64,000 bases of DNA, from assembly GCF_051903065.1 (NCBI RefSeq), contig NZ_CP178438.1; one strand, written 5' to 3'. Shown one piece after another: positions 48,001-57,000 of the stretch. Made by a program: the position numbers. The DNA is from Escherichia coli (GTDB taxonomy: Bacteria; Pseudomonadota; Gammaproteobacteria; Enterobacterales; Enterobacteriaceae). Numbering within the stretch: the stretch's first letter is position 1; each line of letters begins with the position of its first letter.

Positions 48001-51000
48001 ATTGCGTTAACGGTACAGCGCTCGCTTCCCGATCTGGCATTGCCAGTGCAAAGTTGCCCCCCATGCAGATCAATGCTCGAGCCTGCCCTGTACATATTGC
48101 TTGCATGCTGGCAATTGCAGCATGTCCAGGTGCTTGAGGTGGTGTGAAGCCATAGCGCTCACCCAGGCGAGCCAGAAACTCTGCAGACGGTTTCTCGGTG
48201 ATACCGACGGTTCGGTCGCCCTGTACATTAGAGTGGCCACGTAGTGGGCAGATACCCGCACCAGGCTTGCCAATGTTACCTTTCATCAACAGCAGATTGA
48301 CCAGTTGCTGTACATTCTGGGTACCATGTTCGTGCTGAGTGATCCCCATTCCGTAACAGATAATGGTTCGTTCGGCAGCGGCATATGCATCAGCCAGTTC
48401 GGCGATTTGTGTCTGACTTAGTCCAGAAATACGTTCGATATCTTTCCACTCGGAATTGAGCACGTCACGGCGTAGCTCGTCAAAGCCGACGGTATGCGTT
48501 TGAATAAATTCGTCATCCAGCAATGAGGGCCGACCTGCGGCGCTTGCAGCATCATCGCGCTCAATTAACAGGCGCATCATCCCCTTGAGCAACGCCATAT
48601 CACCACCAATGCGCACGTTATAGTAGGCACTGGCCAACTGAGTCTCAGAGTTCGTCAGCATTTCAAACGGGTTTTGCGGTGCGGTAAATCGCTCCAGGCC
48701 ACGTTCCTGTAGAGGATTGATGGCGATCATTTTCGCTCCCCGTTTCACTAAAGCGCGCAACGAAGTCAGCATGCGAGGGTGGTTTGTACCAGGGTTATGC
48801 CCAATGCAAATGACTAAATCGCACTTCTCAAAGTCTTCCAGCAACACGGTCCCTTTACCTACACCGATACTCGCTGCCAAACCCACGCTTGTCGGTTCAT
48901 GGCACATGTTGGAGCAGTCGGGAAAGTTATTGCTCCCGTATTCACGGGCAAAAAGCTGATAAAGAAAGGCAGCCTCATTGGAAGTGCGGCCCGAAGTATA
49001 GAATTCAACCTGATTGGGATCACTATAGCTTTGAAGGCGTGCGCCAATTTCATCGAAAGCTTGTTGCCAGCTTAATGGCTTGTAACAGTCGCTGACGGCA
49101 TCATATTTCAAAGGCTGAGTGAGTCGCCCCGCAGCCTCAAGCTCGTGGTCTCCCCAGGTAAGTAATGATTGAACCGTATTCTCAGCAAAGAAAGAGGCGT
49201 TTACCTGCTTATCCGTGACTTCCCAGGCGATTGCTTTTGCGCCGTTTTCACAAATGTCGAATGACGCACTGTGCTTAGGATCTGGCCATGCACAACCCGG
49301 ACAGTCAAAGCCCTCTGGCTTATTCATGTCAAACATGGCAATAACATCCTGGCGTATATCCATCTGCTTACGTACTGCATTCGCTACGGATTTAACAGCA
49401 CCCCAACCACCGGCAGCTCCCTGGTAGGATTCAATTTTTTTCTTCATCTACTTATCCTGTGTGGAAATGAATTATTAGGATTTGTAATAGCGATGATGCA
49501 CAGTACATACAAAGGGATTATCGCCAACATGGATATATAAGAGTAGGGGACTACTCTCTTTCTATTTTTAATCTATTATCGTTAAACAATAGATTAAATA
49601 CGATAAGGTAAGCATCATCTCTCATAGTGTTTAAATTAACATATTTTTTAATATAAAAAATAAGACTCTGGCTTCAATTGTGCGCGGATTTTCTTACAGG
49701 TGTAGGATAATAGCCTTCACAAAATAATTATCCGCGCAATTTTCGTGAATGGAGCGCATAGACCAATGTCAAAATCACAATTATTCATAGATAAAAGTGA
49801 CACCAATGACTGACTGGACGGTTCCGGCTGAAACCTTGTTTCCTGTTTGTCCATAGGTTGCGCTTAAACCCAGAGGTACTTTGCTTTTATTTACTGTCCC
49901 CAGGGAGACATTTTCTCCCGTAGCCAGTATTTTTCCATTACGCATCAGAGAGACACCCACTCCCGATGCTTTTGTTGCATCTGGTGCTGTGTTAGCAAAC
50001 ACTTGTCTAGCACTGTCAGTGGTAGCACCCGAAAGATAAAATGAGAGCTTTTGTTCACTTGAGCAATATACGCCAAGGGGGATTTCTGCGCTTCCAGGAA
50101 AGTCCGGGAGATTCACGGTGACATTACGACTATCAACAGTGCAGCCGCCTGTTGGCATAACAACACTGTTATTTGAAATAATATTCCACGTAAAATTACG
50201 CGGATTTCCGCTTCCTAACGTGGCAATTTTATACATATGAATACGGGCAATAACTTCCCCGGCTTTTATGACAACTCCACCGGCCGCCCCGACTGGGGTA
50301 ATATAGAGTTTTAACGGTAATGGCATCGGTGTCTTATCACCAATATCCAATACGTTTGTATTTGTCGTCAACGGGAAGGGGTAGGTCACATTATTCCAGT
50401 ACAGCGATCCTTTATATGACTGTAGAGAGCCTGCGAAAGCTGAGCCTTGTACCAGGTTTATATGATCAGTGTCGTACCAGCCGCCGTAATCATTCCAGCA
50501 ACTTATATGCTGAGACAAGTCTACAACCAGATTCTGGCCCGGCTGTATTACAGGGTCGAGATTAACATAAACAGAGGTTGTACCAGCTCCAATACTTGAC
50601 CCGCCATCGACATTACAACTGAAGGCAAAAACTTTGCCTGCCATTAATAGAAGATAAATACCGAACAGGACCTTTATACTGATTGTTTTACCCATGATAT
50701 ATCCTAAGGTTAAAAAATTGATTTAAAAAGAAGGCTAAGAAAATCGAATCGACGTTATTGCCAGGTGTAGATCACATTGATTAGCGCCTCGATCGTTCCC
50801 TGGCTTGCATTTCCATTCACCGTGATAGCTCTTGCCTTAAGTGGAAACTGTGCATTACGAGTGATCTCATCAACAATAACCGTTTTGCTATCGCCATTTT
50901 TTAACGTCGCATCCTGGTCATCCCTCAGCTCTATCTGAATATTTTCGGCAGTACCTTCATTTTTGTAATAACCCGTATTGTCAGTTGAACCTGTCACGAT

Positions 51001-54000: not shown

Positions 54001-57000
54001 GCTGACCAACATCAAACTCAGTTGATGCGTCGACCAAACGATCCTGAAGTGGTGTGCATGCGCTGTTGTCCGGCACATGTTTTTCTGCTGAATGTTCCTT
54101 ATTGTCTAATAACGCAGATTTTTTTATGCCAAGACTGACAAGAAGATCTGTACTCAGGCATGGGATGAGATCTGCATTATTATCATCTGCAATAAAAGTA
54201 ATATCCCGACTAGTCATAAATTCGTCGTTCAAATAAATGTCGACCCGATATGTACCAGGTGGTGCCTCGCGTCCCTTAGTAAAGGCGGATAAATCGACAG
54301 ATTCAGCAAGATCATTGCTTAAAAATCGTGGATTAAAATAATACTCTGCGTAAACGGGAAATACCGCAGTTGCTAAGCCAAGGGCAATCGTAAGCCGTGC
54401 AAAGCGAGGCAGTAGTAACACCTGATGCATACGATATGCCTTAAATGCGGCACGAAAGGCTGTCATTATTAATTCCGATTGAGTTTATTATTAATTAGGT
54501 CACTGGCTTACTGCATGGTTGCCTTAATACGCGGAGTTAATGCGCCGTAATCATTGATCGTCTGAAAACTGATATCCCCGGTGGCAGCATGCGGGATATC
54601 CACCGACACTTCACCTTTTGGCGGCACCATGGTGTTTGGGAGATTGCTATTTCCTGCTTTCATATTTGTTACGGTAATGAAGTAGGGCGTTGGATTAATA
54701 AGAGTGAGTTTGCTACCGCTGCGACGAAACCGAAGCATTGCAGGCGCTTCTTCAGGTGCCATTGCCAGGTTCGTGGGGCGATAAAACATTTTTATGCGGC
54801 TAATAATTGCCAGCTGTAATGTATTCTCATTCTTCTGGTCTTTTTCCATAGCAGGAATAGCTTTAACATTCACCCAGAACAGGCTTTCACGGTCGCCTGG
54901 TAACTGATGATTAGTGGCGTTGATTATCCGCAGCGTATTCTCTTTTTTACCTTGCATGGAAAAAAGCGGTGGGGTAATGACAAACTGGGTGTCTTTTTGG
55001 TCACCTGCATTTTCTATCCATGACTGAATGAGATAGACACTGGCAGGATCATTATTCGTGACAGGCAATAAAACCTGTTTCTGGTTTGCCGGATAAATTA
55101 CCCGAGTCGCACCCAGTGCGACAGCTGCGTTGGCAACGGTGCTATGGCAAGCAAAGAGCAATAAAAGTAACACTGTCGCCATAAAGGAAATAGAGTAGGG
55201 GGTACGCGTAGTTTGCATCTGATGCATTCTCCATGTGTTAAGAGGATAAGCGGGAAAACCGTTACATCAGACAATCGGTAAATGTTGCTAATACATTGGC
55301 GAGTCGCCGGGTTTCCAGACTTAATGCGTTTGTAATAAATGTTGGTTCTCTTTTAATAGGAAAACCTTGCTACAAAGTAAATATTTTAAATAACAGTAAG
55401 TTTAACTACTGTTGTTTATTGATAGTTTAGATATTATGTGATTTTTCATAGCGCTCCAAATACAAACTACTCCTCATTAATAATGAGATTCACATTGGTG
55501 AATTGCTCGGGTGTGCGTAGCCATGCCACACACACCCTGTTTCAATTTCAGATGACGTATAGCCACCTTAAGATTGAATTATAGATATTGAACTTTGAAG
55601 GTCGCATCTGCGTTTGCAGTACCAGCTACGGACTGCCCGAGTGCAATATAACGAGCCTGGAACGGCAGTATATTCGTGCCATCAATCAAGTCAGTTTTAG
55701 CGCTAAAAGTGGCACCATCAAGTGTTAATACCTCACCCGTACGGTCTAAAATTTGGATACCGACATTTTGGGCAGAGCCTGCCGCTGAACTCTGCAGCGC
55801 TAACGTATCGTCATTACTGGTGACAGTAGTACCCAGGAATGCAACAGCTGCATTACTGGAAACATTGGTATCACAATCATTCAGCTTGATATTGAAGCCA
55901 ACGGCGGAGCTGAGGTCACCCGCTTTAGCCAGGCGAGAAGAACGAACCTGACCCAGCTCAACCGTTTGGTTCATTGATTCGGAATCAATCGCACAAGCGG
56001 CATTTACCACTTCACCTTTAAAATGAATAACACCGCCATTAACAGTGGTCGTTACTGATTCATCACCCTCGGCTGCGCTTACCGCAGCAGACGACATCGC
56101 CAACACAGAAACGACAATCATACCAACATGTTTGAGTTTCATAATTCTCCAAAATTTATATTTAAGTAGCTGAATAAAGAGAGTTAACAATTAAGTCATT
56201 CTGTTATTGCTTATAAAACAAGAATCATTCTTGATTGGTTGTTGCCCTGAGAATATAGTTTCCAGGGTTATTACATTTCACGAAGAACGAGAATATCTTT
56301 AAATCACAAGGACACCTAATCACAACAAGTTTATTGCTGCACTTGTTGAAGAGAGTATTTGCAAAAACATTTTATGTCGCTAAATAACATGACGATTTCA
56401 TTATGCATGTTATTTATAAACCGTGACTAAACAGAATATTATTGCGAACAAGGGAAGTGTCAGGAAAGGTCAAGGGCTACTAACGGTTTATATGGCTATA
56501 AATCATTAGCTATAGTTAATGTTTGCCTGGTGTAACTAACACCGAATTGCTCTAAAAAGATAAGTGCAGGGTTTATTAAAGCTGACCGACAGACTTTCTT
56601 AACCTGGTAATATCTCTCTTAGGTGACTCTCCAAACATCCGCAAATATTCCCGGCTGAAATGGGATAAGCTTTCGTAACCGACAGCATAGGCTGCTGTGG
56701 TGACATCGTAATGTTCATTCAGCATCGTTCGCCTGACTTCATTGAGACGTAGCCATTTCTGATACCGGAGTGGACTCATTCCCGCAAGCTGCCTGAAGTG
56801 TTGATGGAAAGAGGGCGTGCTCATTTGCACGCGGTTTACCAGCTTGAGTCTTCAACGCTGGGAAGATGCGGCAAACGGCAAATCTGCATACCAGCCAGCC
56901 TATATCCGGCATGCACAGGCCAATTATGAAAGAGGAGAGGCTTAAGTTCTGGAATCCTGAACGAATAACGACTACCGGAAAATCACTTCGTATCACTCAG

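Follow-up and report, generated by a model that had tools for sequence, protein, structure and literature searches.

An intact chaperone-usher operon of Escherichia coli orthologous to the F9 (Fml) fimbriae, with a conserved hairpin behind its major pilin gene

F9 (Fml) fimbriae have been described in several E. coli strains, and the operon, its distribution, promoter and control by H-NS, the structure of the adhesin, and the deletion in K-12 have all been published. The known systems closest to the locus considered here are those of CFT073 (c1931–c1936), UTI89, and O157:H7 (ECs2113-type locus). In CFT073, the promoter was mapped by 5′-RACE and the 5′ UTR belongs to an H-NS-bound region; the same study puts intact F9 at 60% (PMC3966885). 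CFT073 does not express F9 at 37 °C, and a study from 2025 found low expression and an absence of thermoregulation. Fimbriae reactive with F9 antiserum, and regulation by H-NS or temperature, have been published for CFT073 and O157 only.

The window analyzed here is a 64,000-nucleotide stretch of E. coli DNA which very probably carries an intact chromosomal F9 chaperone-usher fimbrial operon. Translation of positions 49781–56142 yielded six minus-strand ORFs devoid of internal stops, as follows in order of transcription:

55579–56142, minus strand: F9 major pilin FmlA, orthologue of c1936 (187 aa; Pfam Fimbrial, 4.9e-31)
54508–55218, minus strand: F9 periplasmic chaperone, FmlC-type, orthologue of c1935 (236 aa; PapD_N 8e-40, PapD_C 4.9e-12)
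51815–54466, minus strand: F9 outer-membrane usher, full length (883 aa; PapC_N, Usher, and PapC_C)
51271–51801, minus strand: F9 minor pilin YdeS, FimF-like (176 aa; Pfam Fimbrial and orthology)
50755–51258, minus strand: F9 minor pilin YdeR, FimG-like (167 aa; Pfam Fimbrial and orthology)
49781–50695, minus strand: F9 tip adhesin FmlH (YdeQ), with lectin and pilin domains (304 aa)

The encoded proteins comprise a PapD-type chaperone, a three-domain PapC-type usher, and Ig-like pilins, with Pfam scores far above the gathering thresholds. PapC_N, Usher, and PapC_C were each matched over the full length of the profile, and the usher is therefore not truncated; neither an internal stop nor a frameshift was found in it. 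The chaperone spans 54508–55227 (239 aa) if read from the first ATG, while the RefSeq start at 55218 (236 aa) has the better Shine-Dalgarno spacing. Apart from the long spacer between the pilin and chaperone genes, the intergenic gaps measure 12 to 59 nt. The ORFs and Pfam domains thus agree with the initial annotation, which had proposed a six-gene chaperone-usher operon with every gene intact, arranged as major subunit, chaperone, 883-aa usher, two minor subunits, and adhesin.

The same annotation had assigned the cluster to the F9 type, an identity which follows from orthology to CFT073, the FmlH lectin domain, the flanking genes, and the published promoter. Upon alignment with the F9 operon of CFT073, all six proteins were equal in length to their counterparts and 97.8 to 98.4% identical (major pilin, 98.4%; chaperone, 98.3%; usher, 97.8%). 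The gene order is that which defines F9 (PMC3966885), and the locus is flanked by ydeP and hipBA, as in the published F9 position. Residues 25 to 184 of the adhesin are 100% identical to FmlH in PDB 6AOW, the crystallized lectin domain, and the galactoside-pocket residues F1, Y46, D53, K132, N140, and R142 (PMC5866590) are all present. The adhesin also matched the Pfam families FimH_man-bind and a pilin domain; its earlier description as FimH-like thus holds for the fold, but not for the pocket, which is of the FmlH galactoside type rather than the mannose type. This account of the operon rests on gene content, intactness, orthology, ligand-pocket residues, the sequence of the promoter, and the size of the deletion in K-12, and no observation spoke against the F9 identity.

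Two regulatory features precede the major pilin gene:

56393–56429, minus strand: F9 promoter (−35 TAGTCA at 56429–56424, 18-bp spacer, −10 CATAAT at 56405–56400, start G at 56393)
56143–56392, minus strand: F9 5′ UTR, long and AT-rich (GC 0.36 in 56000–56499)

The −35, −10, and start site sit at exactly the published spacing, a promoter scan also lists this promoter, and its core is invariant among the window, CFT073, N96, and K-12; the −35 element differs by one base from that of CFT073 (TAGTCG). By extrapolation from what is published on the orthologues, transcription would begin 251 nt ahead of the pilin ATG, at this sigma-70 promoter, which H-NS silences in CFT073. The periplasmic chaperone is expected to capture exported pilins and the usher to polymerize a fiber consisting mostly of major pilin, with two adaptor pilins and the FmlH adhesin at its tip. 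FmlH would bind terminal beta-galactosides, namely Gal-beta1-3-GalNAc/GlcNAc and plant xyloglucan.

At least 80% of a 7.1-kb query spanning the operon was present in 3587 of 5426 complete E. coli genomes (about 66%), in line with the published proportion of intact operons (PMC3966885). The operon is already known, and nothing in it is new apart from an uncharacterized conserved hairpin after the first gene. The practical value of its identification is correct annotation, as the RefSeq names fimA, fimF, and fimG invite confusion with type 1 fimbriae.

The hairpin lies within the spacer that separates the pilin and chaperone genes:

55219–55578, minus strand: untranslated spacer, pilin to chaperone (351–360 nt; middle part 72–78% A+T; no conserved ORF)
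55509–55537, minus strand: GC-rich hairpin in the pilin 3′ UTR, GGGUGUGUGUGGC-AUG-GCUACGCACACCC, with no U-tract after it

The spacer measures 351 nt to the first chaperone ATG and 360 nt to the annotated start, close to the 350 bp given originally, and occupies the position held by fimI in fim operons. It contains no fimI ORF and nothing resembling FimI by tblastn or blastn: tblastn with K-12 FimA, FimI, FimC, FimF, and FimG, as well as short-word blastn with the fimA–fimC region, matched only the flanking pilin C terminus, and a decayed fimI was rejected. A repeated element of the REP/BIME type was likewise rejected, the spacer occurring a median of once and at most twice per genome. A 15-codon ORF, MKNHIISKLSINNSS, with GGAG 5 nt upstream, was judged to be due to chance because an insertion truncates the N96 copy and the Shine-Dalgarno sequence is altered in another allele. 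A Rho rut site was not convincing (C/G ratio only 0.7–1.5, mainly A+T), and a consensus scan of the spacer returned no internal promoter.

The hairpin begins 42 nt past the pilin stop codon and consists of two arms (55509–55521 and 55525–55537) that form a 13-bp stem, including two G-U pairs, around a 3-nt loop. Its predicted folding energy is −23.8 kcal/mol in isolation, and the MFE of a surrounding 121-nt stretch is −41.8 kcal/mol, compared to −22.3 ± 3.1 for shuffled sequences (z = −6.4), none of 200 shuffles being as stable. The inverted repeat initially noted in this spacer thus exists and folds strongly, but with a stem of 13 bp rather than 7. Of 3590 genomes, 1974 carry the 46-nt segment encompassing the hairpin at 100% identity, compared to 22 of 3569 for the neighboring 46 nt. 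Among eight diverse strains, 12 of the 13 stem pairs are invariant, and the sole change, found in N96, breaks a pair; covariation within the stem was not seen among these strains. A search of genome contigs with a degenerate pilin C-terminus pattern yielded no F9 orthologues outside E. coli for covariation analysis. The contigs returned by that scan were two contaminated with E. coli and one carrying a Samsonia fim-like operon with fimI. A search of 49400–57200 against Rfam (E ≤ 5) gave only sub-threshold chance matches to OxyS and AdoCbl-II. We found no literature on F9 transcript ends, and no mention of the hairpin or the long spacer in the F9 papers retrieved.

By analogy with the fimbrial operons pap and cfa, which are precedents for differential decay, and with the fimA 3′ UTR, a precedent for a processed and hairpin-ended transcript, the hairpin, with the long AT-rich untranslated spacer behind it, probably raises the level of pilin mRNA relative to that of chaperone and usher mRNA. 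The hairpin most likely serves to protect the 3′ end of the pilin mRNA or to attenuate read-through, in the manner of pap and fim. Its main effect would be to keep pilin transcripts that have been processed, or have ended prematurely, from being degraded 3′ to 5′; a reduction in read-through may contribute. The original suggestion that the repeat sets subunit stoichiometry is plausible on the model of pap, cfa, and fim, and the strong conservation of the hairpin sequence fits such a role.

In classic models, the major pilin genes of pap and fim are followed by a terminator-like stem-loop, and the F9 hairpin resembles this arrangement in that a strong GC-rich stem stands directly 3′ of the gene whose product is needed most. 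It could accordingly be read as a partial Rho-independent terminator that stops a share of transcripts after the pilin gene, so that attenuation rather than protection would be at work. However, the stem is followed by GAGCAAUUCACC, which contains no U-run, and the hairpin was not listed by a terminator scan. Lacking a U-tract, it is therefore not a canonical intrinsic terminator, and we consider partial termination unlikely. About equally improbable is a functionless hairpin, conserved only through the youth of the operon and the low diversity of E. coli. The absence of compensatory changes is consistent with this explanation, as is the confinement of F9 to E. coli, which makes deep comparison impossible. 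In contrast, identity falls below 95% in only 54 of 3590 genomes for the hairpin segment but in 3004 of 3569 for the adjacent 46 nt of spacer, and in N96 the 29-nt hairpin carries a single change although the spacer is only 82% identical overall.

Less likely still, the pilin 3′ UTR may give rise to a stable small RNA active in trans, comparable to FimR2 from the paralogous fim operon. FimR2 is produced by RNase E cleavage of the fim transcript, ends in a hairpin without a U-tract, and uses two GGA motifs for CsrA. The F9 hairpin, too, belongs to a gamma-1 fimbrial operon and is found immediately 3′ of the stop codon of the major pilin gene, the site equivalent to that annotated as fimR2 in K-12; it likewise lacks a U-tract, and its sequence is under strong constraint. 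However, there is no significant sequence similarity between them (local alignment to the fimA–fimI spacer scored 14, whereas shuffled sequences averaged 12.9 and 33% of them reached that score) and no Rfam match. Nor is there a GGA motif in the loop or the 5′ single-stranded part; none occurs from the pilin stop to the hairpin end, the nearest being about 35 and 55 nt beyond. Of similarly low probability is the broader proposal that hairpin and spacer form a dedicated post-transcriptional module, a source of stable pilin mRNA in monocistronic form and possibly of a trans-acting FimR2-like small RNA; such a module, if real, would tie F9 to biofilm or motility control by a route of its own. Should the hairpin control the ratio of pilin to assembly machinery, or yield a small RNA, the theme of pap, cfa, and FimR2 would extend to another fimbrial family.

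The reading of the whole cluster as a type 1 (fim) operon, suggested by the fim names given to three genes by PGAP and by the adhesin match to FimH_man-bind, is almost certainly wrong, since the proteins are only 45 to 67% identical to K-12 Fim proteins (67% for the major pilin and FimA), fimI is absent, the genes upstream are an AraC-family remnant and hipAB rather than fimB/fimE, no inverted repeats of an invertible fimS switch bracket a promoter segment of ~300 bp upstream, and the mannose-pocket residues are replaced (Q133K, N135A, D140N, and F142R).

Type 1 fimAICDFGH and F9 are nonetheless paralogous chaperone-usher systems of the gamma-1 group that agree in overall gene order, and in both the major pilin gene is closely followed by a GC-rich hairpin that lacks a U-tract. 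The two differ in that a 64-nt gap, fimI, and a 36-nt gap lie between fimA and fimC, as compared to the uninterrupted spacer of F9, which has neither fimI nor a detectable relic of it and no fimB/fimE/fimS switch, and in that the F9 adhesin pocket is predicted from its residues to accommodate galactosides instead of mannose. FimR2 resembles the F9 element in mapping to the major pilin 3′ UTR and in ending in a hairpin, but its stem is far weaker (5 bp, −9.2 kcal/mol).

Compared to the window, K-12 has lost a single stretch, as determined by BLAST of K-12 DH1:

53042–56320, no strand assigned: stretch deleted in K-12 (3,279 bp)

The deletion has taken away the pilin and chaperone genes, the spacer with its hairpin, usher codons 1 to 475, and part of the 5′ UTR, bearing out the statement in the initial annotation that K-12 lacks the major subunit, the chaperone, and part of the usher. 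Its junction, GGTTCC|ACAACAAG, is ambiguous by 1 nt and contains no IS. K-12 retains the F9 promoter, some 73 nt of the 5′ UTR, and the ydeQ-ydeR-ydeS-ydeT′ remnant, whose products (the adhesin, both minor pilins, and, from ydeT, the C-terminal 408 aa of the usher) are 98 to 99% identical to those of the window. The DNA just upstream in the window is also of the K-12 type, with a remnant of an AraC-family gene, whereas CFT073 has SDR, LysR, and esterase genes there. The F9 operon of CFT073 itself shares with the window its gene order, protein lengths, ydeP/hipBA site, lectin domain, promoter, and transcription start, and the proteins display allelic differences only, amounting to 3 to 19 residues each.

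The chaperone-usher operon at 49781–56142 was described accurately by the initial annotation and is itself known and common; its sole unexplored element is a conserved hairpin in the pilin 3′ UTR together with the long pilin-chaperone spacer. All six of its open reading frames lie on the minus strand and are uninterrupted by stop codons.

Features of the locus (window coordinates)
55579–56142, minus strand: major subunit (pilin), 187 aa; GGAG precedes the ATG, and the start is that of RefSeq
54508–55227, minus strand: chaperone, 239 aa counted from the first ATG
51815–54466, minus strand: usher, 883 aa
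51271–51801, minus strand: minor subunit, ORF without internal stop
50755–51258, minus strand: minor subunit, ORF without internal stop
49781–50695, minus strand: adhesin, 304 aa
55537–55509, minus strand: hairpin, 13-bp stem and 3-nt loop, beginning 42 nt past the pilin stop
56321–56429: promoter and leader retained in K-12 (about 6541–6650 of the K-12 DH1 locus, L002)

In RefSeq the chaperone begins at 55218 and has 236 aa; GGAGA is at a more usual distance from this start. Expected Pfam domains were detected throughout: Fimbrial in the pilins, PapD_N and PapD_C in the chaperone, and FimH_man-bind with a pilin domain in the adhesin. The usher profiles PapC_N (1–146 of 146), Usher (1–549 of 549), and PapC_C (1–66 of 66) are all complete, and the usher is therefore full length. 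The operon is complete and intact, as initially proposed, and its 883-aa usher lacks the stop or frameshift that the initial annotation had named as grounds for refutation.

On every feature testable from sequence, the cluster belongs to the F9/Fml type, because orthology to CFT073, lectin identity, promoter and start site, gene order, and flanks agree. Among 5,426 complete E. coli genomes, the top match shows 100% identity across 7.1 kb; its cluster is flanked by ydeP on one side and, on the other, by a truncated AraC-family gene and then hipAB. Aligned with the CFT073 F9 locus, all six proteins are of equal length and 97.8–98.4% identical, bearing out the initial F9 assignment; the K-12 Fim paralogues are much more distant, at 45–67% identity. 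Adhesin residues 25–184 match the lectin domain of crystallised FmlH at 100% identity (PDB 6AOW and ten other entries). All residues for binding terminal galactose and aglycone are present (F1, D53, K132, and N140, plus Y46 and R142), and the FimH mannose-pocket residues are replaced. In CFT073, the mapped f9 transcription start is a G lying 251 nt before the pilin ATG, preceded by a −10 CATAAT and −35 TAGTCG 18 bp apart (PMC3966885). The window has CATAAT (56405–56400) and TAGTCA (56429–56424), also separated by 18 bp, and its position 56393 is a G, at exactly the same 251-nt distance from the ATG (56142). The six-gene order, ydeP and hipBA flanks, and variable DNA just upstream have likewise been described for F9 (PMC3966885). 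In an identical locus (L001, NZ_AP045789.1), PGAP names F9 genes fimA, fimF, and fimG ("type 1 fimbrial ..."); at just 45–67% identity to Fim proteins, the genes so named are part of another fimbrial system.

The function of the window operon can be taken from published work because this covers near-identical orthologues: transcription is repressed by H-NS (PMC3966885), expression at 20 °C and biofilm formation have been reported, and the adhesin binds galactosides (PMC5866590). A later study (2025) found low F9 expression and no thermoregulation.

At least 80% of a 7.1-kb operon-spanning query was present in 3,587 of 5,426 complete genomes (66%), and some part of it in 5,357 of 5,426. This carriage matches a published survey in which 25 of 42 F9 operons were intact (PMC3966885). 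One genome per bacterial species was scanned with a degenerate pattern for the pilin C terminus; apart from two contigs that were E. coli contamination, the sole match was a fim-like operon in Samsonia, in keeping with the published restriction of F9 to E. coli and Shigella. Near-identical spacers in L013 (JARKOR010000214.1, a 'Candidatus Nanosynbacter' MAG) and L014 (NZ_JACBGI020000078.1, Thiomicrorhabdus heinhorstiae) are almost certainly E. coli contamination of those assemblies. Within the E. coli genome set, 4 of 3,664 spacer copies were plasmid-borne rather than chromosomal.

The reported loss in K-12 of the major subunit, chaperone, and part of the usher was confirmed with DH1, in which collinear identity extends to 53041 and resumes at 56321. 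The missing 3,279 bp (53042–56320) comprise most of the 5′ UTR, pilin, spacer, chaperone, and usher codons 1–475, and what remains of the usher is the 408-aa ydeT fragment. No insertion sequence is present at the junction, a clean break in which one base is ambiguous. K-12 keeps the promoter, the start site, and about 73 nt of the leader, joined directly to ydeT′, the truncated usher; the F9 promoter could therefore still drive the ydeTSRQ remnant.

Two inverted repeats at the promoter look like candidate operators: a perfect 11-bp repeat (TAAATAACATG / CATGTTATTTA, 56381–56416) bracketing the −10 box and transcription start, degenerate in the divergent strain N96, and a 15-nt, 87% repeat (56415–56492) overlapping the −35. 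Just upstream of the promoter, at 56576–56845, an AraC-family regulator survives as a C-terminal fragment (HTH_18; a RefSeq pseudogene); CFT073 and N96 carry other DNA there, in line with the published variable 5′ region. Near the ydeP 3′ end, a 768-bp IS1 (46555–47322) with a 9-bp target duplication (CCATGCGGC, 46546–46554 and 47323–47331) shortens the ydeP ORF from 759 to 709 aa. Strain 23CRST027 lacks this insertion and is 100% identical over 13,278 bp to the right and 99.9% over 1,843 bp to the left; none of the best matches listed among complete genomes carries it. Two overlapping long ORFs (58915–62910 and 62877–63947) belong to an ECSE_1600-family autotransporter (K-12 ydeK/yneO region); the annotation of the identical strain treats this gene as incomplete, with a frameshift.

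The pilin-chaperone gap measured 351–360 nt (initially given as 350 bp), other operon gaps being 12–59 nt. The spacer contains no conserved ORF, detectable fimI relic, or Rfam match, is 72–78% A+T in its middle, and occurs at a median of one and a maximum of two copies per genome. RNA folding upheld the reported inverted repeat, which proved to be only part of the 13-bp stem. The hairpin has a folding energy of −23.8 kcal/mol, and the surrounding 121 nt a z of −6.4 versus shuffles. Among eight aligned sequences (the window and seven strains spanning the identity range of 3,657 spacer-matching genomes), the stem is unchanged in seven; N96, with a spacer just 82% identical, has a single change, which breaks a G-U pair. 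No stem covariation was seen in these eight because there is almost no variation. Of 3,590 genomes, 1,974 matched a 46-nt hairpin-centred query at 100% identity and just 54 fell below 95%, whereas of 3,569 genomes only 22 matched the adjoining 46 nt of spacer at 100% and 3,004 fell below 95%; by these counts, the hairpin is far more constrained than its surroundings. In the alleles with one or two mismatches that were inspected, differences fell in the flanks and spared the stem. No U-tract follows the stem, which rules out a canonical intrinsic terminator. A second, AU-rich hairpin (AAACAACAGUA...UACUGUUAUUU, 55387–55418) precedes a U-rich stretch; it is less conserved than the GC-rich one and possibly acts as a weak terminator.

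We favour, by analogy, a role for the GC-rich hairpin in shielding the 3′ end of a pilin transcript, which would increase the amount of pilin mRNA over that of the chaperone and usher. Partial termination at this stem is unlikely, and a stem so constrained being without function seems similarly improbable. At the equivalent position, the paralogous fim operon carries FimR2, a hairpin-ended, RNase E-processed RNA, but a FimR2-like trans-acting sRNA is very unlikely here, as the region has no significant similarity to FimR2 and lacks GGA motifs. In the fim-like operon of Samsonia erythrinae (L012, 2825–2900), a hairpin (CAGGCC-AGGAA-GGCCUG) with GGA in its loop lies between the pilin gene and a fimI-like gene and is a possible FimR2-like element beyond Escherichia and Salmonella. 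Whereas fimI occupies the pilin-chaperone position in fim operons, F9 has a spacer without it. For 3′-end protection of the pilin transcript, the pattern of differential mRNA levels is established in papBA and cfaAB, and in many E. coli operons with protective structures.
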